Shown here: one piece after another, positions 18,300 through 61,677 of the stretch | Numbering within the stretch: position 1 is the stretch's first letter | Layout of the letters: every line of letters starts with the position of its first letter | Assembly: GCA_001773695.1 (NCBI GenBank) | Contig: MEXN01000007.1 | Span: 115,204-179,203 of the forward strand | Source: Candidatus Amesbacteria bacterium RIFCSPLOWO2_01_FULL_48_25 | GTDB taxonomy: Bacteria > Patescibacteriota > Microgenomatia > CAZETR01 > Amesbacteraceae | Reading direction: 5' to 3' | DNA: 64,000 nt | Notes under the pieces: model-generated | Told to the model about the DNA's origin: nothing | The model's database searches: none | What the model saw: the letters and a program-made list of their open reading frames with translations, nothing else | Program-made: the position numbers and the translations under genes

Positions 18300-18353
18300 C
18301 CTCACCTCTAACCCCTCTCCTAAATTTAGGAGAGGGGAACCAAAGGGGTGAGG
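18300..18353. repeat. GC-rich nested inverted-repeat element (copy R1): CCTCACC-tctaa-CCCCTCTCCT-aaattt-AGGAGAGGGG-aaccaaa-GGGGTGAGG. It sits in the divergent helicase/rnhB spacer and supplies a Shine-Dalgarno sequence to both genes.
   Basis: Both arm pairs read directly. GGGGTGAGG lies 12 nt before the rnhB ATG, and its complement GAGGTGAGG lies 12 nt before the helicase ATG. Confidence 0.7.
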
Positions 18354-18365
18354 TAAAATCGCGGT

Positions 18366-18911
18366 ATGAGAATCTGTGGATTGGACGAGGTTGGCCGGGG
18401 TTCGTTGGCCGGACCGTTGGTGGCTGCGGCGATCATTCTCAGGGCAAGCATCTCAAATCTCAAGGATTCTAAAAAATTAAACTTGAAACAAAGAAACAAA
18501 CTTTACAAAAAGATATTAAAAAATGCTGAGGTGGTCGAGGTGGAAATAATTTCGGCGAGACAAATTAATAATCGGGGGATGGGATGGGCAAATAAGCAAG
18601 TTTTTAAAAATTTAATTAAACGAATTGAAGCCGACAAATATATTATTGACGGGAATTTAAAAATCAAAAAAACAATTAGTATAGTGAAAGCGGATACAAA
18701 AATTCCGGAGGTGATGGCGGCTTCGATTGTAGCTAAAGTAACCAGAGACATGTTAATGAAGGAACTGCATAAAAAATATCCGAGTTACGGCTGGCGAACA
18801 AATGTGGGATACGGAACGGGCTATCACGTGAGAGCAATAAGAGAATACGGATCAGTCCACTATCACCGGAGTGTGTTTGTAACAACGGCGATAAAAAACT
18901 CTAAATTCTAA
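18366..18911 (+). CDS. rnhB: Ribonuclease HII.
   Basis: MRICGLDEVGRGSLAGPLVAAAII (DEVGRG catalytic motif); 181 aa. Confidence 0.9.
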   Translation: MRICGLDEVGRGSLAGPLVAAAIILRASISNLKDSKKLNLKQRNKLYKKILKNAEVVEVEIISARQINNRGMGWANKQVFKNLIKRIEADKYIIDGNLKIKKTISIVKADTKIPEVMAASIVAKVTRDMLMKELHKKYPSYGWRTNVGYGTGYHVRAIREYGSVHYHRSVFVTTAIKNSKF

Positions 18912-18944
18912 TATCTAAATCCTAAACAATTTATCAAATTCGAA

Positions 18945-19329
18945 ATGGATCATATCGCCATCATGAATCCTAAGTTGAAATTAATAGACAAAACTTTGAG
19001 TGGGGAAAAGAAGGTTGAGTCGAGATGGCTAAAAAATAAATCCGCGCCGTGAGGGAAAATAAAAATCGGCGAGAGGATTTATTTTAAGGACTCAGGAAGG
19101 CCGGTGACTGCCGTGGCGAAAGTTGAAAGAGTGACGGAATTGACTGATATGGAGAAGGCGACCAGGCTGTTTGGGTCGAGGAAGTGGGCAAAAGGTAAAA
19201 ATTATTGTGTTCTAATCTAGCTGAAGAATCCGAAAAAAGTCGCGCCGTTTAAAATTAATAAGACAGGTTTCGGTTCGGGAGCGGCGTGGATGGTTGTAAA
19301 GGATATTGAGAAAATCAGGACAAAATGAG
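18945..19329 (+). pseudogene. ASCH-domain protein gene disrupted by two frameshifts.
   Basis: Three consecutive frames read MNPKLKLIDKTLSGEKKVESRW..., then ...GERIYFKDSGRPVTAVAKVERVTELT...NYCVLI, then ...NPKKVAPFKI...W. Together these resemble an ASCH fold. Breaks occur near A-runs. Confidence 0.35.
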
Positions 19330-19344
19330 TTATTATTCCAGTTG

Positions 19345-19947
19345 ATGTTGGATGAGAAGTGGGTGATATTGGGAGCGGTTTTGAATTTCTCTGGCACGGC
19401 AACCTATTTGATAGAAACTCTAAAAGGCAAGGTTAAACCGAATAAGATGACATGGTTACTATGGGCACTGGCACCGTTGGTCGCATTCAGCGCTGAGATA
19501 AGTCAGGGTGTAGGACTACAGTCTCTGTTGACTTTCATGGTTGGTTTTGGGCCGCTTCTAATATTTATCGCCTCATTTATCAACAAGGAGGCATACTGGA
19601 AAATCAGTCGTCTGGATTATTTTTGCGGAGGGTTTTCTGTGCTGGGATTGTTGCTATGGGCTACAACCAAAAACGGAAATTTGGCGATAGCTTTTAGCAT
19701 CTTGGCGGATGGGTTGGCTGGTGTGCCGACAATCATCAAATCTTGGCGGGCTCCAGAGACGGAGAATGCGACGGTTTTTCTTCTTGCGGGAATAAGTGCC
19801 TTGATTACTCTCCTTACCATAGATGTCTGGAACTTCGAGCATTATGCCTTTCCGGCCTATATTCTGCTAATTTGTGCTTTGTTATTCTCCTTGATTAGGT
19901 TTCGGCTGGGTAAAAAGCTGGACGAGGGGGTAATTGATAGAGGCTAA
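19345..19947 (+). CDS. Integral membrane protein (5-6 TM), unknown function.
   Basis: Hydrophobic 200-aa ORF; start chosen at MLDEKW to avoid the ASCH remnant. Confidence 0.35.
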   Translation: MLDEKWVILGAVLNFSGTATYLIETLKGKVKPNKMTWLLWALAPLVAFSAEISQGVGLQSLLTFMVGFGPLLIFIASFINKEAYWKISRLDYFCGGFSVLGLLLWATTKNGNLAIAFSILADGLAGVPTIIKSWRAPETENATVFLLAGISALITLLTIDVWNFEHYAFPAYILLICALLFSLIRFRLGKKLDEGVIDRG

Positions 19948-20827
19948 AAGTTAGGTCAGAAGTTGTATTTTGGATGAGTATTTTGCCTTGGGTCGGATAG
20001 ATGAGGGCGCGGGCGAGAGTGGAGTCTTGGCAGGCGGTGAGTAATGCCAACACCTCGTCTTGGGTCATGTGATCTTTGGCGAGACGAGAGGCCTTTTGAT
20101 AGCGACTTACCGATTCCGGCGGTTGATAAGTTTCGTTGGCTTGGCCTCGGGGAGTGAGAAAATGGTTAGTGTGAACGTAATGTCCTCCAGTCATTTGAGT
20201 GGTTTCTTGGTAGCTGGGGGAAACGGCAATGTTTAGCAGGTCGTCGCCTTGGACCAGGAAGTGGTTAAAACCAGAAGCGTGGGGAGTTTGTGATAGTAGT
20301 TGTCCGGCTTGGGCAAGAGAGCGACATTCTAAAAGTGCGCGGGCAATAAAATTACGGGGGACTCCTATCTGGGGACGGGAGTGAAGATTGTCGATACATT
20401 GAACTAGACCCCAATTGTTGATGCTGGCAGACGTGCCAATAAACTGATATTTGTAGTGCAACCCCAAAATAGTGGTGTCCCCGATTTTGGCTTTGAGAAG
20501 ATGCAGGTCATTGGCTGTTTCATTGTCGTCTCCCGAGTCTTCGTTGTGGGCAACGACCGGTTGGTTGTCCAGATGGGTAAATATGGTGGTGCAATGAATG
20601 GATTCAGAGCAGTTAAGAAGAAAAAAGTCCTCAAATGAAACTCCGGCTGCTTGGGCCATGTTTTGGGCCTCGATCAAGATTTCAGGAAAGGTTTTTTGGG
20701 CGGCTTGAATATAGGGATCAACGGGGAGGATTTTAAGTTTTTTGACCCGCTGGTTAATTTCTAGGCGAAACTTTTTACCTAAAAAACTACCCAGTTCGGC
20801 GTGGGAACCGGTAAATTCTAAGTACAA
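19895..20827 (-). CDS. Ntn-hydrolase-like protein, peptidase C45 / acyl-CoA:6-APA acyltransferase-like (tentative).
   Basis: ...FFLLNCSESIHCTTIF...VVAHNED... pattern (Cys nucleophile + HNED) ~310 aa. Assignment is by resemblance only. Confidence 0.35.
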   Translation of the reverse strand: MYLEFTGSHAELGSFLGKKFRLEINQRVKKLKILPVDPYIQAAQKTFPEILIEAQNMAQAAGVSFEDFFLLNCSESIHCTTIFTHLDNQPVVAHNEDSGDDNETANDLHLLKAKIGDTTILGLHYKYQFIGTSASINNWGLVQCIDNLHSRPQIGVPRNFIARALLECRSLAQAGQLLSQTPHASGFNHFLVQGDDLLNIAVSPSYQETTQMTGGHYVHTNHFLTPRGQANETYQPPESVSRYQKASRLAKDHMTQDEVLALLTACQDSTLARALIYPTQGKILIQNTTSDLTFSLYQLPPRPAFYPAET

Positions 20828-20847
20828 AAATGGGTGGTTTATTATAT

Positions 20848-21261
20848 TCAGGGTAGTTTATACAAGACTTGGGAGAGGAAGTCGCGGGGAGATAAAATGG
20901 GTATGCCCTTGAATTTTTTGAGGGGGAGAAGATGCTTTTTGTCACCGGTGACAATATAGTCGGCGTTGGCGGCTTGGGCGCAGGCTAATATTTTATTATC
21001 TGTAGGATCAGATTTGACTACGGAGACGGTTGGGGTGGTGGTAATATATTCTCCGACTGTCGATACCAATTTTTCGGCTTCCAAAAGATTATCCTTGTTC
21101 CATTTGAACTTATTGGCGAGAGTCTGAATAACCTCCTTGACTACTTCTTCAGATACACATACGGTAATCTTTCTTTCCTTGATCGCATCGAACATTTTAC
21201 TTATAGCGCCACCGAAATGAAGGTTGGAAACGTAGATGTTGGAGTCAAAAACTACCTTCAT
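20848..21261 (-). CDS. PIN-domain ribonuclease toxin (VapC-like).
   Basis: MKVVFDSNIY...(D) ...ITGDKKHL acidic residues typical of PIN; 4-nt ATGA overlap with the upstream RHH gene. Confidence 0.7.
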   Translation of the reverse strand: MKVVFDSNIYVSNLHFGGAISKMFDAIKERKITVCVSEEVVKEVIQTLANKFKWNKDNLLEAEKLVSTVGEYITTTPTVSVVKSDPTDNKILACAQAANADYIVTGDKKHLLPLKKFKGIPILSPRDFLSQVLYKLP

Positions 21262-21500
21262 GCATCTCCCATGAGCCTGTATACGTCTTCTTCGGAAGTG
21301 ATACCCAATTCCTTCGCCTTTTCGCGACCATACTCGCGGATCTTCTCCCATCTTTGCATCCAAACATATCTTTTCATAAGTTCGGCTAGAGTGGCGCTGC
21401 GTGTCTGGCCCGCGTCTTTAATAACTTCGTCGAACGAGGAGAGAAGTTGGGAGTCCAACGAAAATGAGACTACGGCTGTATTTCTGGTAATTTGGGGCAT
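21258..21500 (-). CDS. Ribbon-helix-helix (CopG/VapB-like) antitoxin.
   Basis: TAVVSFSLDSQLLSSFDEVIKDAGQTRSATLAELM is a typical RHH beta-strand plus two helices; immediately upstream of and overlapping the PIN gene. Confidence 0.6.
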   Translation of the reverse strand: MPQITRNTAVVSFSLDSQLLSSFDEVIKDAGQTRSATLAELMKRYVWMQRWEKIREYGREKAKELGITSEEDVYRLMGDA

Positions 21501-21531
21501 GGTGTTATTATTACACTGTAATACTGGGGTG

Positions 21532-22032: not shown

Positions 22033-22036
22033 ATTT

Positions 22037-23002: not shown

Positions 23003-23198
23003 ATATGTTTTTGGCTTTGGGATTATTATTTACGACCACGTGGGTATGGGGAAGCGGGAAGTGGGGGTTGATCACGACAACGGGAATAATTGGCCTACTG
23101 TGGATGAGGAGGTGGGGATTGTGGGACGAGGTGACCGTGGGCGGATGGTTAATATTTCTGGGGTTGCTTACTTTAGTTAATTAAAGTAGCATGGGCGG

Positions 23199-23558
23199 GT
23201 GCAAGTTTCCAAACGAAATGTCAGTCCGATTTTAAAAAAACAGATTGAAAAAATGTGGTATCAGTTGGTGGTAGATATCAAAACTCCCCAGGATGCCGAG
23301 GTGATACTGGGAGGGTTATTATCCGAGACTGAACTGGAAGCAGTTACTAAAAGACTGGCGGTGGGTTATTGGTTAAGCAACGGCAGAAGTTATGAAAACA
23401 TAAGAGAGAATCTAAAGGTATCAAGTGCTACGATTGCGGCCATTGCCCAGGAGCTGAAAAAGCCGGAGTGGACGTCTGCACTACAGCGAGTGAAGGCCGA
23501 AGAGTGGGCAACGAAGTGGGAGACGAGGATAAACAAATTATTTAATCCTCGTAGTTAA
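23199..23558 (+). CDS. TrpR-like YerC/YecD family DNA-binding protein.
   Basis: LLSETELEAVTKRLAVGYWLSNGRSYENIRENLKVSSATIAAIAQEL pattern; 119 aa. Confidence 0.45.
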   Translation: MQVSKRNVSPILKKQIEKMWYQLVVDIKTPQDAEVILGGLLSETELEAVTKRLAVGYWLSNGRSYENIRENLKVSSATIAAIAQELKKPEWTSALQRVKAEEWATKWETRINKLFNPRS

Positions 23559-23600
23559 ACAGTTGATCAGTTAATCAGTTTGCCAGTTAAGTTATTAAGT

Positions 23601-24806: not shown

Positions 24807-24832
24807 ACCCCGAAGTATACTATAGATAGCAC

Positions 24833-25063: not shown

Positions 25064-25150
25064 TTGATATAATAGCTGCACAATGAAACTGGGTGTTTAC
25101 ATGATGGCGATGGATTCCGCATAGGCGGGTGGTTCGACGTTGTTCACCAT

Positions 25151-25177
25151 TCCGCCGAAAGGCGGATTTTTTATTTC
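25151..25177 (+). terminator. Rho-independent terminator: TCCGCC-gaaa-GGCGGA followed by TTTTTTATTT.
   Basis: Perfect 6-bp GC stem, GAAA tetraloop and a T-tract read directly. Confidence 0.55.
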
Positions 25178-25180
25178 TAA

Positions 25181-25216
25181 CTCACCCCTAATCCCTCTCT
25201 TAATCTAAGAGAGGGA
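25181..25216. repeat. Partial copy (R2) of the GC-rich inverted-repeat element: CTCACCCC-taa-TCCCTCTCTTA-atc-TAAGAGAGGGA. It gives AGAGAGGGA as the Shine-Dalgarno sequence 14 nt before the ATG at 25230.
   Basis: Inner arms complementary; the outer right arm is missing. Confidence 0.5.
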
Positions 25217-25229
25217 CATTACTAAACCT

Positions 25230-25910
25230 ATGAAAAAACCACTCATTACAATCACCACTGACTTTGGGGATGGGTTTGCCACAAGTCAGCTAAAAGTGAT
25301 TGTGGCAGGCTTGGGTTACACTGGTCATCTGGTGGAAAACCACGATGTCAAGCCATATTCGATCGTCGAGGGGGCGTATGGGATATGGCAGCTGGCCAAA
25401 TATTGCCCAAAGGGATCGGTGCATGTGGGAGTAGTAGATCCGGGAGTAGGGTCAGATAGAGCCGGAATAGTAATTAAAACCAAGAATTTCTGGTTTGTGG
25501 GGCCGGATAATGGGCTGTTGTATCCCGCGGCAGTTGCGGATGGAATTGAAAGAATTTGGAAAATTATAGATTTTGAAAATGTTTCAAATACTTTCCATGG
25601 ACGAGATGTGTTTATAAAACAGGCAGTGTGGCTGGCGCAGGGGAAAGAACCAAGAGGGGAAGAGATTGAAGAGATTAAGAGATTAAGTTTCGAAGAAGGG
25701 CAGGTGGTGCATATAGACCATTATGGGAATGCCAAGATTTGGGGGAAAAAGACTTTTGGGCTGCCGGTAGTCAAAACTTTTTCGGATGTGCCCGAGGGGA
25801 GTCCGTTAATTTTTAATGGCAGTAGTGACCTACTGGAGCTGGCAGTGAATCTGGGCAGCGCAGAGGAGCGATTTGGATTAAAATTGGGACAAGTTATAGA
25901 AAAACTGTGA
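25230..25910 (+). CDS. SAM hydroxide adenosyltransferase (DUF62; SAM hydrolase, fluorinase/chlorinase-like fold).
   Basis: N-terminal ITITTDFGDGFA and VGVVDPGVGSDR motifs. Carries an in-frame AGAGATTAAG repeat (EEIEEIKRLS) in the inter-domain linker. Confidence 0.7.
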   Translation: MKKPLITITTDFGDGFATSQLKVIVAGLGYTGHLVENHDVKPYSIVEGAYGIWQLAKYCPKGSVHVGVVDPGVGSDRAGIVIKTKNFWFVGPDNGLLYPAAVADGIERIWKIIDFENVSNTFHGRDVFIKQAVWLAQGKEPRGEEIEEIKRLSFEEGQVVHIDHYGNAKIWGKKTFGLPVVKTFSDVPEGSPLIFNGSSDLLELAVNLGSAEERFGLKLGQVIEKL

Positions 25911-27500: not shown

Positions 27501-28193
27501 TTAATAGCTTTCGACAAAACGGGTGCTGTCTAGGTAAATAAGTTTTGGGCTGTTTATGACCTCTATCATTTCATCGAAGGTGGCGAAGACATTTTCCAAA
27601 GCCCGGTATTGTTTCTCGGTCATCCAGATGTTTTCACCTTCTGGAATTTTTTCTTTCAGTTTTCCCTTTGTGTTTTCTATTTTATAGACCCAAAAATATT
27701 TGTCTTCGAGCAACTGGCCATTTTTGTGAAAGTGGTGGTAGTGGACGATGCCCTTGTGAATGAAATCCCCCGTTAGACCCGTTTCTTCGAGAAATTCTCG
27801 ATGGGCACAATCCAGGGGGGTTTCTCCCCAGCGGATTTTGCCGGAATGGGAGCCGTACCAACCATAAAACGGTTCTTTCAGCCGGCGGTGGACAAGATAT
27901 TCGGTAATCCCGTTTTTGGGCCTGACGGCGTGGAGAGCGACAGCCAACTTGGCCTGGCGTTCGAGCTTCAGCGAGTCGGTGTCCATACGGTTGGCAAATT
28001 CTTTGCCCTGGGGGGTGAGGGAATACTTGCCCGCGGATTTGGTAATCAGGCCTTCCTGAATGAGCCGGTTGACGTGGAAAGTGAAGTGGTCGTTGGTGAC
28101 GTCAACGGTTTTGAGATCCCTAAATCTGGCATTGGGCTTGAATAATAATTCACGCAGGATCGAGATCTGAAAGTCGTGAATTTTGAGTTCCAT
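27501..28193 (-). CDS. Winged-helix (MarR-like) DNA-binding domain fused to a NUDIX hydrolase domain.
   Basis: N-terminal ISILRELLFKPNARFRDL wHTH region; Nudix box GKIRWGETPLDCAHREFLEETGL. Confidence 0.65.
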   Translation of the reverse strand: MELKIHDFQISILRELLFKPNARFRDLKTVDVTNDHFTFHVNRLIQEGLITKSAGKYSLTPQGKEFANRMDTDSLKLERQAKLAVALHAVRPKNGITEYLVHRRLKEPFYGWYGSHSGKIRWGETPLDCAHREFLEETGLTGDFIHKGIVHYHHFHKNGQLLEDKYFWVYKIENTKGKLKEKIPEGENIWMTEKQYRALENVFATFDEMIEVINSPKLIYLDSTRFVESY

Positions 28194-28260
28194 GGGGCGT
28201 ATTATTTGCTGAAGAGGGGTGATTGTCTAGTAAAGCCGGCTTTACCAATGTTTCCGAGGA

Positions 28261-28821
28261 TTAAATGGGTTGCCAGATAAAGTAGGAGGTTTTGTCGTCT
28301 TGGACTTCAACGTAGCCTTCAGGACGAAAATGGTATGGGGAAAGTCGGGTTTCGTAAATATAAACCTTATATTTGGACCAAAGCCCGGGATAGGATGTGG
28401 AGAGGATTTGCTCACGATCTTCGACGCCAGTGTTGAACAAGGCTACTCCAATGATGCCCAATTCTTCTTTCAAGGTTCTTATCGCGGCTTCGTCGGGTAA
28501 TTCGCCGGGTCGCATCTTTTCACCGATAGAGGTTGACAGACTCCGTCTTCTCTCCCTGCCGTCAGAGAACACTTGTTTTTCCTCGACTAGTTTTAAAACA
28601 CCTTGTCCCTGGCTAAAAAATACGTTTATCCCTACTCCCTTAACACTCCGTAGAACTTTTTTTCCCGAATCTTCTATTTTGACCTCTCCTGATCTTATTT
28701 CGGTCAGCAGGTGCGCTAACGTTTTGCTTTCTCCGGTTCCCCACTCTTCGTACGGAATTTTTCGGGAGTTAAGGAATTCCTTGAGTTCGTTTAAATTCAT
28801 CTGACGTATCTTATCACTCAA
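28261..28821 (-). CDS. NUDIX-fold hydrolase (divergent).
   Basis: GEKMRPGELPDEAAIRTLKEELGI fits GX5EX7REUXEEXGU. Confidence 0.5.
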   Translation of the reverse strand: MSDKIRQMNLNELKEFLNSRKIPYEEWGTGESKTLAHLLTEIRSGEVKIEDSGKKVLRSVKGVGINVFFSQGQGVLKLVEEKQVFSDGRERRRSLSTSIGEKMRPGELPDEAAIRTLKEELGIIGVALFNTGVEDREQILSTSYPGLWSKYKVYIYETRLSPYHFRPEGYVEVQDDKTSYFIWQPI

Positions 28822-36010: not shown

Positions 36011-36083
36011 GATCCGGTGGCGAAGTGGTAACGCGGCTGTCTGCAAAACAGCTATTGCAGGGGTTCGATTCCCCTCCGGATCT
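36011..36083 (+). tRNA. tRNA-Cys (anticodon GCA).
   Basis: Acceptor stem GATCCGG/CCGGATC, anticodon stem GCTGT/ACAGC with loop CTGCAAA, T-arm AGGGG-TTCGATT-CCCCT, discriminator T. No encoded CCA. Confidence 0.8.
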
Positions 36084-39680: not shown

Positions 39681-40127
39681 ATGACAAATCAAGTTAAGCA
39701 CTTTTATGTGGGAGTAAAGGGGTTAATAATTAGGTATGACGGGAAGATATTGCTTCTGAAACCAAAAAGGGACATGCACCCGTTTTTCATAGGTGATTGG
39801 GATATACCGGGAGGGCGAATCTTGAGTCATAGCGAGGGGGAACATAGAATCAGGTCAAAGATAAAGGAAGAGACAGGACTGGAAGATATTTATTCCATAA
39901 AGCCTTTTGGAAGTGGAATAATTCAAGATGCGGAGTTTGCGGAAGAGGGGCAAGTGGTGGGGTTAGTATTGATGGTATACATTTGCCGACTGGGGAATAA
40001 GGACCAAAAGATTAACTTGGACGAAGGCCACTCGGAGTATAAATGGTGCAGTCCTGGAGAAGCGGCGGCAAATCTGTATCAATTTCCCAACGACTTTCGA
40101 GAAAGGCTTGAAGAGATGAGGTTTTAG
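39681..40127 (+). CDS. NUDIX hydrolase.
   Basis: Nudix box GGRILSHSEGEHRIRSKIKEETGL. Confidence 0.7.
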   Translation: MTNQVKHFYVGVKGLIIRYDGKILLLKPKRDMHPFFIGDWDIPGGRILSHSEGEHRIRSKIKEETGLEDIYSIKPFGSGIIQDAEFAEEGQVVGLVLMVYICRLGNKDQKINLDEGHSEYKWCSPGEAAANLYQFPNDFRERLEEMRF

Positions 40128-42009: not shown

Positions 42010-42591
42010 CTACAATGTCAAATTTGAGTCCGGTTTCGACACTCTAAAGATGTGGGGTTTGGCCAGAAGCAGGCTTATTAGAGTCAGGGCGGATGGAAGT
42101 TGCTGGTTGACTAATAAATTATACGCTTGATCGAATGGTAAGGTTTTGATTTCCAATCGCTCGACGGGGTCGTTGGGTAGAGAGTGGGGTTTCAGGTCCG
42201 TGGCCAGCACAACATAGTAATTGCTATCTATATGGATAGTAGGTGTAAATTTGGCCAAGATCACTAGTTTGTCAGCTTTCATTCCGATCTCTTCCTGGAG
42301 TTCACGATTGGCGTTGTCCAATACTTGCTTATCAGATGGATGTTCGGCTTCGACGCCCCCGGCGGGAAGTTCCCAAACATAATCTTTCCTGGTCGGGCGC
42401 CATTGACGGACACAATATACAGAGTTGTCGTCTGTAAGGGCGATGATACCAACCACATCGCGCGATCTAACATACTGCCAGACAGCAGTCTTACCACCCG
42501 GAAGTTTGACTGTGGCGTCTACGAGCTGGTGTTTGTGGTTTGTGGGGGAAGTGATAACCGATTCTGAAATTATTTTATAACCGGTAGGCAT
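42010..42591 (-). CDS. NUDIX hydrolase (ADP-ribose pyrophosphatase-like).
   Basis: ELPAGGVEAEHPSDKQVLDNANRELQEEIGM Nudix box. Confidence 0.7.
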   Translation of the reverse strand: MPTGYKIISESVITSPTNHKHQLVDATVKLPGGKTAVWQYVRSRDVVGIIALTDDNSVYCVRQWRPTRKDYVWELPAGGVEAEHPSDKQVLDNANRELQEEIGMKADKLVILAKFTPTIHIDSNYYVVLATDLKPHSLPNDPVERLEIKTLPFDQAYNLLVNQQLPSALTLISLLLAKPHIFRVSKPDSNLTL

Positions 42592-42616
42592 GAAGGGATT
42601 TTAGCACTTGGGGGGT

Positions 42617-44578: not shown

Positions 44579-44618
44579 TTGCTAGCAATATATACCAGAC
44601 AGCCTAAATTCTTGTCAA
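44579..44618 (-). promoter_or_regulatory. groES promoter: TTGACA-N18-TATATA (minus strand), followed by the 10-bp palindrome TTGCTAGCAA in the 13-nt leader.
   Basis: Complement of 44613-44618 is TTGACA; 44589-44594 is TATATA; the palindrome spans 44579-44588. No CIRCE-like TTAGCACTC-N9-GAGTGCTAA found. Confidence 0.45.
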
Positions 44619-45059
44619 GAGGGAAGATAGTTCGGTCAAAAATTTAGCTTGGGCGGGATGAATTTTGACTTGGGCGATGGAGAGAGAAAACCACTCGCCC
44701 CTGTCGACTTCGGGGTAAGATTTACCAAAGAGGACAAAAGTGTTGCTCTTGAGCTGGGTGGGGTCGAGATTACCTTCCACGGACCAGGCATAAATAACTT
44801 TGCCGCTTTGGATCTTGACTGGAGATAGAGGTACAAAATCGCCGGAGATGATAGCGCCGGTTTCTTCAAAAAATTCTCTTTTGGCAGTCTGAAGCTGATC
44901 TTCGCCGGGGCTAAACTCTCCTTTGGGAATGGACCAGACTCCCATGTTCTTTTTGGCCCAGAACGGGCCGCCGGGATGGACGAGAAAAATTTGCAGGTCG
45001 GGCTGGTGACGAAAAAGCAAGATGCCAGCGCTATTTTTTCTGAGGGTGGAAGAAGGCAT
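44604..45059 (-). CDS. NUDIX hydrolase (HPGGPFWAKKxxGxWSIPKGE subfamily).
   Basis: LLFRHQPDLQIFLVHPGGPFWAKKNMGVWSIPKGEFSPGEDQLQTAKREFFEETG. Confidence 0.7.
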   Translation of the reverse strand: MPSSTLRKNSAGILLFRHQPDLQIFLVHPGGPFWAKKNMGVWSIPKGEFSPGEDQLQTAKREFFEETGAIISGDFVPLSPVKIQSGKVIYAWSVEGNLDPTQLKSNTFVLFGKSYPEVDRGEWFSLSIAQVKIHPAQAKFLTELSSLLTRI

Positions 45060-45888
45060 AGCCTAATCCTACTCTTTCTGTGGTCATTTTGGGTTTCATA
45101 TATAAATATTGCAACCAGAATAGTAATAGATTTATTGGAAACAGTAAATTTGAAATTTTAAATTTTAAATTTGAAATCAAGTCTAAGTTATTAAATTTTA
45201 AATTTTTCAATGATTCTGAATAAGCCACTGGAAGGTAATCTTTGGCCCAGGAGTTGGCGGTTAAAAACCCGTAGTGGGTGCCGCCGCGGTCGAAGATGCA
45301 TTTGGCTTGCAAAATTTCGTGGGCGGTATATAAGTTATTAGCTGTTAGTCGTAAGCTATTAGCATCTAAATAGAGGTTGTCGCAGATGAGGCCGGGGGCG
45401 ATTTTGACTCCCGGTTTGCGGCGAAAAGAATGGATGTTGAGATACACAAGGAGACGGGTGAGCCAGAGGGTGTGGGGAGAGGTAATAATCATCAAATCGA
45501 TGTCGTCGTCTGCGGGGCAGTTGTTCATGGCCAGGGCGCCGGTGACGAAGATGGCCTGGATAAAGGGAATTTTGGAGAGTTTATCCCCTACTCTGCGAGC
45601 GATTAACCATTTTGGTTTACTGAACTTCGCACGTTGTTTTCTGAGATGAATTGAGTTCTGATAACCTGACAAAAAATAAAATCCGTCTTTTTTCTGTACC
45701 TCACCCCATCCCTCTCCTAAATTCTCGCTTTGCTCGTGCCGTTGGCCAGGAGAGGGAGCCAGAGGGAGAGGTTTAGAACTCCAACGGCGGATTTCTGTAT
45801 ACGTTAGCGGGTAGTCGTAGCGGGCGAAGTAGGACAGGGTATTTGCCAGGGAGTTATTTTTGAGTTGGGGGAGCGACGATGAGGCCAT
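45031..45888 (-). CDS. Polymerase-beta-superfamily nucleotidyltransferase-like protein carrying an inserted repeat element. C-terminal extent uncertain because the 3' end runs into AT-rich simple repeats.
   Basis: TGALAMNNCPADDDIDLMII (G[SG]…DxD NTase motif). The N-terminal segment LAPSPGQRHEQSENLGEGWGEV is encoded by repeat copy R3. Confidence 0.4.
   Translation of the reverse strand: MASSSLPQLKNNSLANTLSYFARYDYPLTYTEIRRWSSKPLPLAPSPGQRHEQSENLGEGWGEVQKKDGFYFLSGYQNSIHLRKQRAKFSKPKWLIARRVGDKLSKIPFIQAIFVTGALAMNNCPADDDIDLMIITSPHTLWLTRLLVYLNIHSFRRKPGVKIAPGLICDNLYLDANSLRLTANNLYTAHEILQAKCIFDRGGTHYGFLTANSWAKDYLPVAYSESLKNLKFNNLDLISNLKFKISNLLFPINLLLFWLQYLYMKPKMTTERVGLGYAFFHPQKK
45699..45771. repeat. Full-length copy (R3) of the GC-rich inverted-repeat element: CCTCACCCCATCCCTCTCCT – 29-nt loop – AGGAGAGGGAGCCAGAGGGAGAGG, in frame inside the NTase-like gene.
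   Basis: Both arms are exact reverse complements of the arms of copy R4 (59189-59237). The loop resembles the loop of R5. Confidence 0.75.
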
Positions 45889-50540: not shown

Positions 50541-50984
50541 ATGATTTCGACGCAAATATACAAGCAAAGCGAGCTGGCGAACGTAGCTAAAAAGGTATTA
50601 CTAATGAGGCCTAATATAATAGCTTTGGAGGGGCCGATGGGAGCCGGTAAAACGACATTGACAAAAGTGTTGGCTAGAACGCTGGGGATAAAAGAGGAAA
50701 TCGTCTCCCCTACTTTCGTCCTGCACCGACCGTATTCTGGAAAAAATGGAATTACTTTTAATCATATTGACTGTTGGAGAATGGAGAAGTTCGGAGAACT
50801 GCAACATATTGGTTTGCAAAAGATGATTGGGGAAAAATCGACTATCGTGATCGAGTGGGCGGATAGGTTTGAGAAAGAGATTAAGAGATTAAGTAAGAAA
50901 GAGATTAAGTTGGTTTGGGTAAAAATTGAATATGGGGAAAAAAAGAATGAAAGGAGGATAAGTTATGAAGATATTGGCTATTGA
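50541..50984 (+). CDS. tsaE: tRNA threonylcarbamoyladenosine biosynthesis ATPase TsaE (YjeE).
   Basis: IIALEGPMGAGKTTLTKVLARTLG...VVSPTF; C-terminal in-frame AGAGATTAAG repeats (EKEIKRLSKKEIKL). Confidence 0.8.
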   Translation: MISTQIYKQSELANVAKKVLLMRPNIIALEGPMGAGKTTLTKVLARTLGIKEEIVSPTFVLHRPYSGKNGITFNHIDCWRMEKFGELQHIGLQKMIGEKSTIVIEWADRFEKEIKRLSKKEIKLVWVKIEYGEKKNERRISYEDIGY

Positions 50985-51993
50985 GACGAGCTGTGATGAG
51001 ACGGCAGCGGCGGTGACTGAGGGAACCGAAATCCTGTCGAGTGTGAAGTGGACACAGGAGATTCACAATCAATATGGCGGCGTGGTGCCTGCCCTTGCCA
51101 AGAGGGCACATGAGGAACGCATCGAGGAGATTATTAATGATGCTTTAAAGCGTTCAGAGACTAGCGTTCAGCGTCTAGGGGCGGTAGCTGTCACGGTCGG
51201 GCCTGGGCTGGCGATTGCGCTCGAGGTGGGTATTAAATGGGCGAGGAAACTGGCCGCCGATTGGCATAAACCGTTGATAGGAATAAATCACATCGAGGGT
51301 CATATACTGAGTGCTCTAAAAAAAGAGGTGACTTTCCCCTGCCAGGCCCTAGTAATCTCAGGTGGACATACGCAGGTAATTAGAGTTGATGGGATTGGAA
51401 AATATGAAATATTGGCGCAGAGCCTGGATGATGATATTGGGGAGGCGTTGGATAAAGGGGCGAGGATGTTGGGACTCCCCTACCCGGGTGGCCCAGCTTT
51501 GGAGAAGTTGGCGGCACAGGGAGATCCAATAAAATATAAACTGCCATTGCCTATGGCGGGGAGAGAAGGAAGGGCATTTAGTTATTCAGGGCTTAAGACG
51601 GCGTTTTACCGTCTAGTTACCCAGTTGCACAGTTACCCAGTTGCACAGTTTGAACCACAGGAAATTTCAGATCTGGCGGCGGGTTATCAAGCGATGGTGT
51701 TTAGACATTTAGTGAGAACCCTTAAAGTGAATGTTCAAAATTCAATGTTCAATGTTCATGACCTTTTGGTGGGGGGTGGGGTGGCAGCAAATATGAAGTT
51801 GAGGGACGAGATTAAGAAATTAAGCAATGAAGTCAGCTTAAACGTTCATTACCCAGCTAATTTAATGCTGTGCACGGATAATGCGGCCATGATCGGAGTA
51901 GCGGCGGGATTTAAGGCGAAAAGGGGCGAGTTTACTGACCCGGAGAGAATTGATCGTCTGCCGAGGTGGAGGGTGGACGAAATTTCCTCTTAA
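50965..51993 (+). CDS. tsaD: tRNA N6-adenosine threonylcarbamoyltransferase TsaD (Kae1/Gcp).
   Basis: MKILAIETSCDETAAAV, HxEGH (INHIEGHIL), GGVAAN. Contains two in-frame simple-repeat insertions (51617-51655 and 51726-51762). Confidence 0.9.
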   Translation: MKILAIETSCDETAAAVTEGTEILSSVKWTQEIHNQYGGVVPALAKRAHEERIEEIINDALKRSETSVQRLGAVAVTVGPGLAIALEVGIKWARKLAADWHKPLIGINHIEGHILSALKKEVTFPCQALVISGGHTQVIRVDGIGKYEILAQSLDDDIGEALDKGARMLGLPYPGGPALEKLAAQGDPIKYKLPLPMAGREGRAFSYSGLKTAFYRLVTQLHSYPVAQFEPQEISDLAAGYQAMVFRHLVRTLKVNVQNSMFNVHDLLVGGGVAANMKLRDEIKKLSNEVSLNVHYPANLMLCTDNAAMIGVAAGFKAKRGEFTDPERIDRLPRWRVDEISS

Positions 51994-58076: not shown

Positions 58077-58150
58077 GCCTGGTTTGAAAATTTTTTGAGC
58101 TTGGAATAACTCTTATAAGATAATTACACTTTATAACATGAAACCAAAAA

Positions 58151-58573
58151 TTAAAAATTTGCCTTGTTTAAGGTCAGGTTGACCAGTTCGTCTGCTGGAG
58201 AATTTTGCTCCCTGGGGATGTATATAAAGTTAGCAATATTTGATTTACCACTTTCTATTAAATTTTTAATTTCTAAATATTTAAGTTTTAAAATTGTGTC
58301 TTTTATTTTGTATAACCCCTTTAGTTGGTTCACGACGAGAAGAGAGTCGAGATAGTAGTTTACCAGTTGATCAGTTTTACAGTTGTTCAGTAACCATTTT
58401 AGTGATTCGATCACTGCTTGATATTCGGCCTGGTTGTTGGTAGCAGTGCCTAAGTAGAATCCCTGTTTGTGAAGAGTTTTCCCTGTAGAGTCTCGGACTA
58501 CAAAGGCGGAGGCCGCTGGCCCAGGATTGCCGCGGGCACCGCCGTCACAAAAAATACTTAGGGAGTTGTTCAT
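58151..58573 (-). CDS. rnhA: Ribonuclease HI.
   Basis: IFCDGGARGNPGPAASAFV, TNNQAEYQAV, and C-terminal SPADELVN (DEDD catalytic residues). AT-rich and CAGTTGATCAGTT insertions present. Confidence 0.8.
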   Translation of the reverse strand: MNNSLSIFCDGGARGNPGPAASAFVVRDSTGKTLHKQGFYLGTATNNQAEYQAVIESLKWLLNNCKTDQLVNYYLDSLLVVNQLKGLYKIKDTILKLKYLEIKNLIESGKSNIANFIYIPREQNSPADELVNLTLNKANF

Positions 58574-58578
58574 AGTAC

Positions 58579-59802
58579 TTAGTGCTTAGTACTTAGGTTT
58601 TTAGATTGTATATAAATAAGTGACATTAAGATAGTTAGCAGTAGGGTGTTTTGGTGCAGAGTAACCCAATAGTGATCAGCCGCTCCTGTTATTAAGATAA
58701 CCAGAAGCGGAATTTTCAATTTCCTATTTTCAATTTCGATCCATTGATCGCGCTTTGCGAGCAAATAATTTTCAATAATCCAATATCCAATCACCAAAAG
58801 CGCCGGGAGGCCGAGTTCGGAAGCTAGGAGGAGATAAATATTGTGAACCGGTTGTGAAGATAGAGAATAGGGCATAGCGAATAGGTGGTAGGGAGAGGGG
58901 ATGAAGTTGCCGAGACCGACGCCCAGTACAGGATGATTTTTGATAAGTGTGATCGATTTGCCGATAAGAAATAGGCGCTCTGATAAGGAAGAGGGGTTGC
59001 CGGGAATTAGAGTAGAAGAGAAGAAGAGGAGAAGAGTCGAAGAAATAGCAAGGCTAATTTTTAACTTTAAACTTTTAATTTTAAATAGCAGCCAGGTTAC
59101 TAAAAGAGCTGCTTCAAAGAGAATTGCGGTTCGGGAAAAGGTGAGGGGAATGGTTAGAGCTGCTAGCACAATAGCAATGCAAGCAAGACCTCTCCCTCTG
59201 GCTCCCTCTCCTGATTCAGGAGAGGGATGGGGTGAGGTTATTAAGTAAATAACGATTAACCCGCTTACTAATAAAAATCCCGCTAGGGCGTTGGGATGGG
59301 GAAGTGTGGCGTATGGGCGGAGGGTAAGACGGCCATCGATGGCGATTTTGGCTATGCCAGGGGTAGTGATATCGAAGCGGCGTTCGCCTAACCAGTAGAG
59401 GAGACCACCAAGAGAACCCTGTTTGAAAAATTGTAACCAGGCGAGAAGGGAGGTCCAGATCACGCTGGCACTCAATGACCAATTTACAATTTTCAATTTC
59501 CAATCAATTTCAAATGTTAAATATTTAAATATCCAAAAATACTCTAATACTCGGAGCCATTTGTAGAGGGCGATAAAAGGAGATTGAGATATTAGGATAT
59601 TAAGTACAACAAAAATAATTGCCCAAAAGGGAATTTTGATTCGCTGGCGTGATATAAGAACCATGGCTAGAATCAGAATGTCCGTGAAGTAGAGAGTGGG
59701 GGAGAGGTAGTCTACGCGCAAGCCATTGACTAGACTCCAGGATGGCCAGAGGTGAAGCGCGAGTTGGGAAGGAAGAAGTAAGACGAGGAGAAAGAGGATC
59801 AC
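58579..59802 (-). CDS. Polytopic membrane protein, O-antigen ligase/Wzy_C-like (tentative), heavily invaded by repeat insertions.
   Basis: ~12 TM helices plus a periplasmic loop. Contains repeat copy R4 and at least three AT-rich CAATTT-type blocks, all in frame. Confidence 0.4.
   Translation of the reverse strand: MILFLLVLLLPSQLALHLWPSWSLVNGLRVDYLSPTLYFTDILILAMVLISRQRIKIPFWAIIFVVLNILISQSPFIALYKWLRVLEYFWIFKYLTFEIDWKLKIVNWSLSASVIWTSLLAWLQFFKQGSLGGLLYWLGERRFDITTPGIAKIAIDGRLTLRPYATLPHPNALAGFLLVSGLIVIYLITSPHPSPESGEGARGRGLACIAIVLAALTIPLTFSRTAILFEAALLVTWLLFKIKSLKLKISLAISSTLLLFFSSTLIPGNPSSLSERLFLIGKSITLIKNHPVLGVGLGNFIPSPYHLFAMPYSLSSQPVHNIYLLLASELGLPALLVIGYWIIENYLLAKRDQWIEIENRKLKIPLLVILITGAADHYWVTLHQNTLLLTILMSLIYIQSKNLSTKH
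59189..59237. repeat. Copy R4 of the GC-rich inverted-repeat element (reverse orientation, 5-nt loop): CCTCTCCCTCTGGCTCCCTCTCCT-gattc-AGGAGAGGGATGGGGTGAGG.
   Basis: Exact reverse complement of both arms of R3. Confidence 0.75.
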
Positions 59803-59813
59803 TAGTGTTTATT

Positions 59814-60272
59814 TTACGCTTTAGGACTGATGACCACGGAGCGGGACCGGCCGACGCCTTGCGAGGAGGTAGTGACTTGGGGATGTTCGGCCAAATGGAG
59901 ATGGATGATTCGGCGTTCGTTGGCCGGTAGGGGGGGGAGCATGTGGGGCCGGCCCGTAGAAACGACTTGATCGACAACTGAGTCGGCCAGTGAATGAAGA
60001 GTTGTTTCCCGACGTTCTCTATAGTCGTTGACGTTTAGTGAGAGGTTGAGCCATTTGTCGGTCTTGGTATGAAGGTGTAATCCCAAAATCAACTGCAGGG
60101 CGGAAAGCATGTCTCCATGATACCCAATTAATAAGGCAGGATCTTTTGCGGAGAGGGAAATGTGATAGAGATTGTTTGTACTGTCGTACTGGACAGACAT
60201 TTCCACGCCCCCATACCCAACTTGGGTTAATAGGTCTTGAGCTATCTGACTAACTAATTCAACGTCGTCCAT
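59814..60272 (-). CDS. jag: Jag-like KH + R3H RNA-binding protein (SpoIIIJ-associated).
   Basis: KH core LLIGYHGDMLSALQLIL and R3H PPLPANERRIIHLHL; start taken at MDDVEL to avoid overlapping the yidC stop. Confidence 0.75.
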   Translation of the reverse strand: MDDVELVSQIAQDLLTQVGYGGVEMSVQYDSTNNLYHISLSAKDPALLIGYHGDMLSALQLILGLHLHTKTDKWLNLSLNVNDYRERRETTLHSLADSVVDQVVSTGRPHMLPPLPANERRIIHLHLAEHPQVTTSSQGVGRSRSVVISPKA

Positions 60273-60274
60273 GG

Positions 60275-61096
60275 CTACTTTTTTAGGGATTTTAACATTC
60301 CCAGTCTTTTGATCCAAGGAGACAGACCTCCCCAACCCAAAGCATAGTATTGCTGAACGAAGCTGACGGCGGAAAAGACCAGCCAGTAAAGTACTAAACC
60401 AGAAGAAAACTGGTAGCCGATGACCAGAGTCATGAGAGGGAACATGTACATCATTTGTTGCTGCATGGCGACGGCTGTATCGTCGGCTTCTGTGGAGGTT
60501 TTTTGAGCTAATTTTTCCTCGGCAGATATAACCGGAGCCATCATTTTGGCCGTAATAAATTGAAGAACCGCGGAGATGATAAGAAACACCCCAGGCAGAC
60601 CGATGGGAAGGCCAGGGAGATTAATAAGATCCGGCTTAGCTAGGTCCAGATAGAAAAAACTGTTGCCAAGGCTAAAATCACTGGGGATGGAGTTAAATGA
60701 ATATAAAGCCGGCGTCAGACGGGTAACCAAATCACCGTTTGATTTTAGGACCAAATTTAATGAGTTAAATAAAGCGATCAAGACCAGGATTTGGATAATT
60801 TGCGGCAGGCAACCGGAGGCTGGGTTGGCGCCGTGTTGCTTATAGAGTTCGGCCTGGGCGGTGAGCATTCCTTGTTTGTCGTCTTTGAATTTTTCTTTAA
60901 GCTTGGCGATTTCTGGGGCCAGGTCTTGCATCTTTTTACTGAGGCGAAGCCCCGGCAAAACTAGAGGGGTCATGGCAGTGCGTAAACCAACAGTGAGCAG
61001 GACTATCGACCAGCCGAGGTTTCCTGTAAGTTTATGAAGCAGGATAAGAATATTGAGTAAGGGATAAAACAAGATTAAATTCCAGAGTTCGATCAT
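60275..61096 (-). CDS. yidC: Membrane protein insertase YidC (short, Gram-positive/CPR type).
   Basis: ...LLTVGLRTAMTPLVL...ELYKQHGANPASGCLPQIIQILVLIALF... conserved YidC/Oxa1 core. Confidence 0.85.
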   Translation of the reverse strand: MIELWNLILFYPLLNILILLHKLTGNLGWSIVLLTVGLRTAMTPLVLPGLRLSKKMQDLAPEIAKLKEKFKDDKQGMLTAQAELYKQHGANPASGCLPQIIQILVLIALFNSLNLVLKSNGDLVTRLTPALYSFNSIPSDFSLGNSFFYLDLAKPDLINLPGLPIGLPGVFLIISAVLQFITAKMMAPVISAEEKLAQKTSTEADDTAVAMQQQMMYMFPLMTLVIGYQFSSGLVLYWLVFSAVSFVQQYYALGWGGLSPWIKRLGMLKSLKK

Positions 61097-61121
61097 AGTA
61101 CTTAGTTACTTGGTTTATTGT

Positions 61122-61331
61122 TCATCGCAATGGGTCAGGGCCACCAGGGGACCAGGGGTGACAACGAACAATCCTTTTGAGCCCCAACCAGACTCCGGGT
61201 AGAATACCATATTTATCTATGGCTTGATAGGTATATTCTGAACATCGGGGAGTGAAGCGGCAAGCAGAATGACTCTCAAGTAGGGGTAACTTTTGATAGA
61301 AACGAATTGAGAGCAGCACTAATTTCCTCAT
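61122..61331 (-). CDS. yidD: Membrane protein insertion efficiency factor YidD.
   Basis: [37 protein letters not shown]...[12 protein letters not shown]. Confidence 0.85.
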
Positions 61332-61677
61332 TGTTTAAGTTTAACATTGAGGGATGGGGGTAGATAATACAGTTGACCAGTTGACCAGTTGACCAGTTTT
61401 TCAGTTGATCGTAGATGCGGCGGCGAAGGCGGTTCCTGACCACGGCGAGTTTGTGGAGGCGGGAGGAGGTAACGATCGCGAAACGAGGAAATACCTCACC
61501 CGAACTTCGTTCACCCTTTCCTAATTTCTCCCCTTTGGCTCGTGTCTTCGCCGTAGGAGAGGGTTGGGGAGAGGTTAAATACACTGTGGCGGAGAAATGA
61601 AAAAACTTATAAGTTTTGCCCTGGGATTTCGCAATTAAAAAATCTTTGCGGGAAAGCCGCCTGGATTTTGGAAGCAT
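61276..61677 (-). CDS. rnpA: RNase P protein component, carrying two in-frame repeat insertions.
   Basis: N-terminal [13 protein letters not shown] and C-terminal ...[14 protein letters not shown]... are typical RnpA. The central segment [29 protein letters not shown] is encoded by repeat copy R5. [10 protein letters not shown] is encoded by (CAGTTGAC)3. Confidence 0.75.
61494..61574. repeat. Full-length copy (R5) of the GC-rich inverted-repeat element inside rnpA: CCTCACC…CACCCTTTCCT – 32-nt loop – AGGAGAGGGTTGGGGAGAGG.
   Basis: Arms complementary; loop AATTTCTCCCCTTTGGCTCGTGTCTTCGCCGT resembles the R3 loop AAATTCTCGCTTTGCTCGTGCCGTTGGCC. Confidence 0.7.

Follow-up and report, generated by a model that had tools for sequence, protein, structure and literature searches.

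A dispersed G/C-rich repeat of Candidatus Amesbacteria is probably a variant of the BoxC/PIT/TM class, with three of five copies in frame within genes

We analyzed a 64,000-nucleotide (nt) stretch of the genome of Candidatus Amesbacteria bacterium RIFCSPLOWO2_01_FULL_48_25 (assembly GCA_001773695.1, contig MEXN01000007.1, positions 115,204 to 179,203; hereafter, the window). A reading of the sequence alone had located five copies (R1 to R5) of a G/C-rich inverted-repeat element in it, and inspection of the sequence found all five exactly where they had been placed (Table 1). Taken as a whole, R1 to R5 are best explained as BoxC/PIT/TM dispersed G/C-rich DNA repeats, an assignment that we regard as probable. 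The element had been announced as previously unreported, and this proved incorrect: its architecture is that of BoxC, PIT and TM_ECO, described in 1992, 2000, and 2015, and the motif is found in many phyla. What appears to be new is the common in-frame residence within genes of Microgenomates, the long-loop variant of ~30 nt, the host, which belongs to the Candidate Phyla Radiation (CPR), and an association with DUF559 genes.

The class has been named BoxC (Bergler 1992), potential intrastrand triplex, or PIT (Hoyne & Maher 2000, 2002), and TM_ECO, which has been equated with both BoxC and PIT (Holder et al. 2015, PMC4666352). TM_ECO has three 9-nt stems, one C-rich and then two G-rich, with 3 to 6 nt looped between the first and the second and 3 nt (TTA or CCG) between the second and the third; 3610 copies were counted in 262 proteobacterial genomes, and the Escherichia coli repeat, CCCTCTCCC-tgt-GGGAGAGGG-ccg-GGGTGAGGG, belongs to the class II (purine-motif) intrastrand triplex motifs (Holder et al. 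2015, PMC4666352). In E. coli, 23 of 23 copies were intergenic and no link to transposons was found (Holder et al. 2015, PMC4666352). Promoter or terminator activity was not seen for the PIT elements of this species. Copies of TM_ECO are many in E. coli and Enterobacter, and Salmonella is known to have none.

The basic unit in the window is a 9-bp pyrimidine-purine hairpin (CCCTCTCCT / AGGAGAGGG) followed by a short second loop and a purine segment, GGG[A/T]GAGGT, which mirrors the purine stem. A pyrimidine stem, a loop, and a complementary purine stem of ~9 nt are present in all five copies; the inner stem is perfect over 9 to 10 bp in R1 to R4 and carries one mismatch in R5, in which the inner 5' arm is degenerate (CCCTTTCCT). 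The third segment was scored by an antiparallel triad rule (G·G-C, A·A-T, and T·A-T, with no more than one mismatch). At least 8 of 9 triads were triplex compatible on 9 of 10 strand-sides, and all nine were compatible on seven (R1, 9/9 on the plus and 8/9 on the minus strand; R2, 9/9 on the minus strand only; R3 and R4, 9/9 on both; R5, 9/9 and 8/9). In control flanks, scores of at least 8/9 occurred in 2.1% and scores of 9/9 in 0.17%. Loop 2 is 3 nt long on five strand-sides (TTA on the minus strand of R1), was scored as 5 nt in R2 (TTA plus flanking bases), and is 7 to 12 nt long elsewhere. The TTA on the minus strand of R1 and R2 is also the loop of TM_ECO type A. Loop 1 measures 6 nt in R1 and 5 nt in R2 and R4, within the 3 to 6 nt of TM_ECO, and 29 and 32 nt in R3 and R5, outside that range. 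Among relatives, changes in the stem are matched in the third segment as triplex rules require (AAGAGGGG with GGGGGTGAT and AGGAGGGG with GGGGGTGGT). In single-stranded DNA, the mirror segment could, by folding back, supply the third strand of a purine-motif triplex.

We read what had been called outer arms as the mirror-repeat third segments of each strand. The three-segment unit explains why R2, like most copies elsewhere, is one-sided, and its arrangement on both strands of R1, R3, R4, and R5 produces the appearance of a nested inverted repeat. The description of the element as a nested inverted repeat was therefore incomplete, since the unit is a stem, a second stem, and a mirror repeat. 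The statement that all copies share the nested arms stands for the inner arms, present in all five, and for both outer arms in four of the five; R2 is without the 3' outer arm. One outer arm in each of R3, R4, and R5 has GGGAGAGG in place of GGGGTGAGG.

That the copies form a single dispersed repeat family, and are not chance palindromes, was borne out by window-wide searches. Only the R1 to R5 sites in the 64 kb matched CCCTCTC (up to one mismatch) followed by GAGAGGG within 70 nt. The word GGAGAGGG occurred 15 times against 3.4 expected, a count reached by none of 100 shuffles, and GGAGAGGG-N2-12-GGGWGAGG occurred six times against 0 expected. The arms of R3 and R4, said to be reverse complements of each other, are indeed identical in that sense (26 nt at 100% and 25 nt at 96%, the sole mismatch lying inside the loop), and after reverse complementation of R4 the two copies differ only in the loop (29 nt versus 5 nt). 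The proposed kinship of the R3 and R5 loops was upheld as well, and the loop ACGGCGAAGCCACGAGC...GAGAATTT was found again in other genomes. When the copies were folded, all five gave stable structures at -29 to -40 kcal/mol; against shuffled controls, z-scores were -4 to -8 for short-loop copies and -1.4 to -2.6 for long-loop copies, with R1 at -40 kcal/mol (z, -8.3). R4 and R5 are the same, base for base, in eight independent assemblies, which indicates that they are real, not artifacts, and fixed in the population. The RnpA protein of the window was present on at least 22 contigs (NCBI, JGI, ENA, and Logan).

GAA-triloop mini-hairpins (GAAC-GAA-GTTC and GGC-GAA-GCC) were also observed within element loops, at 61501-61513 in loop 2 of R5, where the form is GAAC-ttc-GTTC, and at loci L133 (297-310 and 858-871) and L134 (8610-8623) of other genomes. 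The heptamer d(GCGAAGC) forms an unusually stable DNA mini-hairpin, and such structures would fit structural selection at the DNA level.

The distribution of the motif was assessed by a scan of 185,579 species genomes (596 Gb), seeded on the inner hairpin CCCTCTCCT-N3-33-AGGAGAGGG alone with no flank imposed; all counts refer to the matches listed. Among these were Cyanobacteria, Chloroflexi, Bacteroidota, Ignavibacteria, Verrucomicrobia, Armatimonadota, Nitrospirota, many CPR lineages, a Bathyarchaeon, Acinetobacter, and an enterobacterium. In 127 of the 140 copies, the hairpin was preceded within a few bases by (A)CCTCACCCC or followed by GGGGTGAGGT, mostly on one side only, and 118 of the 140 had a compatible third segment on at least one strand, again as a rule on a single side, with loops of TTA, CTA, TTG, or CCG. 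A sample of 80 loci from Microgenomates relatives (668 kb) yielded 25 triplex-type elements, 21 of which lie in long open reading frames (ORFs), the hosts including TsaD, Wzy-like, and NTase-like genes. By the same crude ORF test, ~27% of cross-phylum copies and 25% of copies on viral contigs reside in ORFs. The long-loop form recurs as a subfamily (loop ACGGCGAAGCCACGAGC...GCGAGAATTT) in different genes and genomes, with stems that differ but co-vary.

Within relatives, TsaD orthologs were seen to carry one or two in-frame elements (L137, at 5661 and 6111; L152, at 5874; L174, at 4565), with peptides SITPLPPLNLRGG..., TSPHPSPIIGEGVRGRG, and TPHPPPILGGGIKEGG. On one contig from a cyanobacterial metagenome-assembled genome (MAG) (L064, 1-567), the entire 567 bp form one long palindrome with three motif copies, which may be an assembly artifact at a hairpin.

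Table 1. Copies of the repeat, their host and neighboring genes, and associated features (window positions unless a locus is named)
Feature	Positions	Strand	Details
R1, two-sided	18300..18353		CCTCACCTC-TAA-CCCCTCTCCT-aaattt-AGGAGAGGGG-aaccaaa-GGGGTGAGG; intergenic in the helicase-nuclease/rnhB divergent pair
R2, one-sided	25181..25216	-	minus strand: TCCCTCTCTT-agatt-AAGAGAGGGA-tta-GGGGTGAGT
R3, two-sided, loop 29 nt	45699..45771		in frame within NTase-like gene; peptide KPLPLAPSPGQRHEQSENLGEGWGEV
R4, two-sided, loop 5 nt	59189..59237		in frame within Wzy_C gene, inter-helix loop; peptide TSPHPSPESGEGARGRG
R5, two-sided, loop 32 nt	61494..61574		in frame within rnpA; peptide (LTSPQP) plus 24 residues
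-10-like hexamer TATTAT	18294..18299	-	6 nt before helicase-nuclease ATG (18287); abuts left end of R1
-10-like hexamer TAAAAT	18354..18359	+	6 nt before rnhB ATG (18366); abuts right end of R1
UvrD-helicase/PD-(D/E)XK nuclease gene	15450..18287	-	divergent from rnhB; ATG at 18287; Pfam
rnhB, RNase HII	18366..18911	+	Pfam
S-adenosylmethionine (SAM) hydroxide adenosyltransferase-family gene (SAM_HAT)	25230..25910	+	downstream of R2; Pfam
Nucleotidyltransferase (NTase)-like protein (Polbeta-fold, weak match)	45031..45888	-	host of R3; ortholog alignment
Wzy_C/O-antigen-ligase-like membrane protein	58579..59802	-	host of R4; Pfam PF04932, ortholog alignment
rnpA, RNase P protein	61276..61677	-	host of R5; Pfam PF00825, homolog alignment
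DUF559 cassette	L153, 6146-6580		Microgenomates relative; two inverted one-sided elements bracket a 103-amino-acid (aa) ORF

Three copies had been said to lie inside genes without breaking the frame, and this is what was observed for R3, R4, and R5. The rnpA gene is placed in an rpmH-rnpA-yidD-yidC cluster beside dnaA, and for the NTase-like gene a conserved N terminus confirms a start upstream of R3. In all three genes, the pyrimidine arm reads as a P/S/T/L-rich peptide and the purine arm as a G/E/R/K-rich one. Of the peptides that had been proposed, the segments translated in frame hold up; the GEGWGEV-reading plus-strand ORF at R5 is antisense to rnpA and is no gene.

The insertion sites of R3, R4, and R5 were compared across orthologs of their hosts, and the expectation that the segments are insertions was supported in each. 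For rnpA, 10 homologs (41 to 56% identity) have lengths of 106 to 118 aa against 133 aa in the window, and the 24-residue segment is in none. The closest of them, from a sister species (L009/L131), retains LTSPQP, coded by exactly one arm (ACCTCTCCCCAACCCTCTC), and is without the other 72 nt of R5, the junction falling at a CTC microrepeat; an older element seems to have been cut down here by an in-frame deletion. The R4 segment is absent from most Wzy orthologs. The Wzy-like protein of the sister species carries the same element at the same site (TSPHPSPDSGEGATRRG), and some orthologs have other G/C-palindrome peptides in the same loop (PPLNLRGG, PPLKLRGG, and SPLRPSPIIGEGFRGRG). Most NTase orthologs are also without the segment, and R3 is absent from one that is 78% identical; in farther orthologs, that hypervariable segment holds a short-loop (PLPxxPSPxLGEGxxGEV) or a long-loop (PPLTAKPRTESEKLRGG) form. 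Because of this pattern of presence and absence in the rnpA, Wzy, and NTase alignments, we interpret the genic segments as DNA-level elements in permissive protein loops.

Small in-frame deletions occur at the elements: besides the 72 nt of rnpA, there is one of 6 nt in the Wzy copy between L009 and L131. They match the instability tied to these motifs by Holder et al. 2015 (PMC4666352). The 6-nt deletion (L009, 4584-4660, versus L131, 4665-4745) lies within the purine stem and is an example of slippage. The idea that the element is copy-spread was supported, in that R3 is absent from the 78%-identical ortholog yet has the same arms as R4, which is evidence of copying or conversion within the genome. 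R3, with the arms of R4 and a loop like that of R5, looks like a younger copy or a conversion product. R4 and R5 appear to be older than the split from the sister species, as is partly shown by R4 and the R5 remnant there.

A further claim had been that the purine arms of R1 and R2 serve as Shine-Dalgarno (SD) sequences for the adjacent genes, and this was not supported by a comparison of 58 crude gene starts in the window with random positions. SD cores ending 4 to 11 nt upstream were unenriched, at 5 of the 58 starts (8.6%) against 6.6% of random positions. A TAnnnT hexamer ended 5 to 9 nt upstream, with a mode of 6 nt, at 18 of the 58 (31%, versus 6.8% at random). Such hexamers stand 6 nt before both ATG codons that flank R1, so that leaderless transcription is the simplest reading of these two genes. 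Moreover, R1 ends 12 nt and R2 13 nt from the start codon, beyond the 5 to 10 nt expected of an SD sequence. These data suggest that the R1-flanked genes are leaderless, with transcripts starting downstream of R1; the element would then lie at -13 to -66 in both of the divergent promoters, with no SD role. R2 lies after a terminator-like hairpin (25150-25175) and before the ATG of the SAM-hydrolase gene (25230). Its spacing is 13 nt, and the modal position lacks a good -10 hexamer; SD use is unsupported here too, and the picture is weaker than for R1. Examples of leaderless-type geometry were noted at 18354-18365, 18288-18299, 42592-42607, and 61678-61693.

We propose that the repeats act as structural elements at the DNA level that are probably selfish or neutral, with no role as RNA regulators or ribosome-binding sites, and that they would persist where they are harmless. 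In the window, such places would be the interval that separates the -10 boxes of a divergent and apparently leaderless gene pair (R1), the interval between a terminator and the next gene (R2), and the variable surface or loop segments of three proteins (R3, R4, and R5).

A candidate for the enzyme that moves them came from a Microgenomates relative (L153), in which two inverted one-sided elements bracket a small ORF. The encoded protein matched PF04480 (DUF559; E value, 5.6e-28) and PDB 3HRL (E value, 3.7e-14), and the left element is nearly the same as R2 of the window. The right-hand motif takes in the final codons and the stop of this ORF. DUF559 is a Vsr-like PD-(D/E)XK nuclease domain whose clade includes the homing endonuclease I-Bth0305I (PDB 3R3P). 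A profile search of ~1.7 Mb of fetched DNA found four DUF559 genes (those of L153, a Bacteroidota MAG, and Acinetobacter portensis, and E. coli ycjD), and all four abut motif copies. We then considered 12 plasmid loci chosen by DUF559 alone, from Deinococcus, Synechocystis, Pseudanabaena, Picosynechococcus, Azospirillum, Sinorhizobium, Photobacterium, Sphingobium, and Neisseria; in 10 to 11 of them, the gene is flanked by G/C-rich stem-loop-stem (plus mirror) motifs. An 18-nt inverted repeat matching at 16 or more of 18 positions flanked the gene at 7 of 16 DUF559 loci, compared with 2.2% of 811 control small ORFs; no shuffle reached that score.

TM_ECO no. 9 of E. coli MG1655 is a neighbor of fabI (envM), and 168 bp separate it from the stop codon of ycjD. 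We take the fabI (envM)-ycjD locus to be the place where BoxC was first noticed. At this locus (L215, MG1655 1,348,500-1,352,500), ycjD was seen to end in a degenerate BoxC-like hairpin, and its last ~50 nt are duplicated downstream, ahead of TM_ECO no. 9. The fabI-ycjD interval was also considered as an empty site, and was set aside as confounded and not clean: in S88 and O157:H7, a resistance-nodulation-division (RND) efflux island starts ~40 nt from the BoxC copy. The cassette found in Deinococcus between paaD and paaZ is bounded by inverted ends of 38 nt, and a second Deinococcus species shows the empty site, where the intergenic DNA is too diverged for a clean insertion boundary. The R3 loop shares an 11-nt match with the outer end of this cassette, judged possibly coincidental. 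The long-loop sequence was found neither outside long-loop elements nor near DUF559 genes in the DNA checked; the notion that the long loop is a remnant of a cassette interior was dropped as unsupported. On a Pseudanabaena plasmid, the subfamily that flanks DUF559 also occurs nearby as solitary paired units, two of them inside large annotated coding sequences (CDSs). Units of this kind, ~85 nt long and belonging to a different motif subfamily, were seen on the plasmid of Pseudanabaena sp. ABRG5-3 (L231, 21878-29645) in the form GCCCCCTAAA-TCCCCCA-attc-TGGGGGA ... TCCCCCCA-gaat-TGGGGGG-CTAGGGGGGC. On plasmid pPg_02 of Pseudanabaena galeata (L226, 290-980), a DUF559 domain and two nested pairs of flanking motifs are annotated within one 4.9-kb CDS, and the whole cassette may lie in frame within the host gene.

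The bracketing of DUF559 genes by the motif parallels that of repetitive extragenic palindrome (REP)-associated tyrosine transposase (RAYT) genes by REPs, which suggests that the solitary repeats are non-autonomous partners. Judging from this analysis, copying would most likely depend on a trans-acting DUF559 (Vsr-like, PD-(D/E)XK) endonuclease. In its full form the proposal is tentative: R1 to R5 and the BoxC/PIT repeats may be non-autonomous partners of a cross-phylum DUF559 cassette with inverted three-segment ends, two-sided solitary copies being cassettes that lost the gene between directly repeated hairpins, one-sided copies being solo ends, and survival in gene-dense CPR genomes being mainly as in-frame insertions in essential genes (such as rnpA and tsaD). 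Alternatively, DUF559 genes and the motifs may merely share insertion hot spots. Searches of the literature linking DUF559 or ycjD to BoxC found none.

The likeness to BoxC/PIT/TM_ECO lies in the three-segment layout with ~9-nt stems and a short loop 2, often TTA, in the G·G, A·A, and T·A triads, and in nearly shared words (GGAGAGGG, TTA, and GGGTGAGG). Multicopy dispersal, inverted pairs, an association with small deletions, and no assigned function or transposase are also common to both. The window copies differ in having a third segment on both strands round a single hairpin in four of five copies, in the conserved ~30-nt loop of two copies, in in-frame translation (3/5, and 21/25 in relatives) where all E. 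coli copies are intergenic, and in their CPR host. Several observations weigh against the assignment and the mechanism attached to it. The literal pattern CCCTCNCCC-N3-6-GGGNGAGGG-N3-GGGNGAGGG matches the window 0 times, and the window stems CCCTCTCCT / AGGAGAGGG differ from CCCTCNCCC / GGGNGAGGG. The R3 and R5 loops of 29 to 32 nt exceed the published 3 to 6 nt, and three of the five copies are genic. A plain nested hairpin fits the two-sided copies equally well, and a G-quadruplex reading also exists. The triplex has been documented in vitro on single strands only and was not seen in vivo in E. coli. No presence/absence polymorphism of R4 and R5 between strains was seen in the eight assemblies. 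DUF559, transposase, and integrase genes are absent from the 64-kb window, and the 135 motif copies in 1 Mb of viral contigs have no DUF559 gene within 2 kb, one weak hit (L295) being at 2,001 bp from the nearest copy. Because the literal pattern is unmatched and the long loops and genic locations go beyond the published description, we file the window copies as a variant (sister) subfamily of the known class.

Other explanations were weighed against membership in the BoxC/PIT/TM class. That the DNA forms a G-quadruplex, or a hairpin switch or cruciform, instead of a triplex, with the mirror segment adding G-tracts, is unlikely. The purine strand does have at least four G-runs, and the E. coli homologues (GGGAGAGGGTTAGGGTGAGGG) have been interpreted in a preprint as G-quadruplex forming, but the runs in the window are often GG and not GGG (AGGAGAGGG...GGGAGAGG), and the A/T positions of the third segment follow the A positions of the stem as triplex rules predict, a dependence for which a quadruplex has no need. 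The sequence-only reading had called the element similar to a miniature inverted-repeat transposable element (MITE). A classical MITE would have nested terminal inverted repeats moved by a DDE-type transposase encoded elsewhere in the genome, with the copies as non-autonomous deletion derivatives. We consider this quite improbable. A MITE-like nature may still apply; motif-bracketed DUF559 genes elsewhere supply a candidate autonomous partner. Dispersed, small, palindromic copies with near-identical arms, whose presence varies between orthologs, are what a MITE would leave; however, although four of the five copies have inverted ends, none of the five has a consistent target-site duplication, and no transposase was found in the window. 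Elsewhere the family is mostly one-sided and hence without a terminal inverted repeat, its 28-nt motif is conserved over many phyla, unlike the lineage-specific MITEs, and the E. coli repeats showed no transposon link (Holder et al. 2015, PMC4666352).

A cis-regulatory RNA or translation element, in which the purine arms are SD sequences that a hairpin hides or exposes, would account for the GGAG and GAGG cores of those arms, for the ends of R1 and R2 12 to 13 nt before start codons, and for the very stable RNA hairpins. It is nevertheless very unlikely, given the unenriched SD cores and a spacing that exceeds the usual SD optimum. The dominant -10-like hexamer, present at both R1-flanked genes, puts the element upstream of the transcription start, and three of the five copies are within ORFs, in either orientation relative to transcription. 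Moreover, PIT elements lack promoter or terminator activity in E. coli, and Rfam gives no match: with Rfam 15, the only match in the window at the gathering score was a tRNA (36011-36083), and at the elements there were sub-threshold chance matches to microRNA hairpins only. There is, finally, a slim chance that the segments are ancestral, selected protein regions (P/S-rich and G/E-rich linkers) and that the palindromy of the DNA is a by-product. Wzy, NTase, and TsaD orthologs repeatedly show PSP...GEG or PPL...LRGG at the same loops, and R4 is common to species whose proteins are 62% identical. Yet identical DNA arms of 20 and 26 nt occur in two unrelated genes, the motif is also intergenic (R1 and R2) and present in other phyla and in viral contigs, and many orthologs are without the segment. 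The peptides differ by frame while the DNA is conserved (R3 versus the L134 loop), and the hairpin and mirror symmetry are maintained by co-variation.

Comparison with other repeat systems, made by description only for the Rickettsia palindromic elements (RPEs), placed the assignment to BoxC/PIT/TM in context. RPEs are likewise palindromic repeats that lie in frame in genes, including essential ones, with peptides at tolerated surface positions. They are 100 to 150 bp long, AT-rich, and confined to Rickettsia, and they have neither purine/pyrimidine strand asymmetry nor a mirror-repeat segment. Size, composition, and host thus differ from those of the window elements, no relation in sequence is apparent, and only the in-frame behavior, by which both work alike as selfish DNA, is common to both. 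The REP/REPIN-RAYT system resembles the window family in its short structured repeats, its single-sided tag beside a hairpin, its singlets and inverted doublets, and the presence of a candidate mobilizing single-copy gene bracketed by inverted repeats, the arrangement that tied RAYTs to REPs. However, the GTAG/CGTC tag of REPs is absent from the window copies, no Y1 transposase was found among the window ORFs, and the candidate enzyme is a DUF559/Vsr-like PD-(D/E)XK nuclease and not an HUH Y1 transposase; REPs are also species specific, whereas the window motif is conserved across phyla. I-Bth0305I illustrates that a small Vsr-like nuclease of the DUF559 clade can drive the mobility of a selfish element, although it is encoded in a phage group I intron and is related to the DUF559 cassettes at the level of fold and clade only. 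We know of no BoxC-like motifs flanking it. BLAST of a consensus element against E. coli genomes returned short chance matches only, the query being too short and of low complexity, and literature searches on RPE-like in-frame elements, CPR MITEs, and small dispersed repeats found nothing relevant.

Other repeats were noted in the window. Runs with an 8-nt period are of three kinds: AT-rich AATTTxCA (9446-9512, 12770-12805, 45145-45219, 58227-58301, and 59473-59539), AGTTGACC (23553-23595, 51615-51649, 58357-58391, and 61363-61413), and GAGATTAAG (13300-13333, 13590-13629, 25660-25695, 50870-50909, and 51808-51832). They are partly translated in frame, as SLKNLKFNNLDLISNLKFKISNLL at the C terminus of the NTase-like protein and as NWSTGQLVN inside rnpA, and peptides resembling NLKFKISN also occupy the hypervariable segment of NTase orthologs. 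The 64 kb further contain five separate NUDIX-domain genes (27501-28193, 28261-28821, 39681-40127, 42010-42591, and 44604-45059).

The BoxC/PIT/TM repeats have been known since 1992 without a function, an origin, or a mechanism of spread. The present analysis carries the family, its 28-nt motif almost unchanged, into the CPR and many further phyla. In small, gene-dense genomes the repeats are mostly genic and translated, and essential proteins such as RnpA, TsaD, and a Wzy-like protein gain loops rich in P/S and in G/E; they are thus a source of protein length variation and of annotation and alignment artifacts in CPR proteomes. A related caution for annotation is that purine-rich repeat arms can be misread as ribosome-binding sites in apparently leaderless genomes. 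DUF559 genes are bracketed by the motif in at least five phyla, E. coli ycjD included, which makes the mover of BoxC testable. If true, the DUF559-cassette reading would give the 30-year-old BoxC repeats both an origin and a mobilizing enzyme.

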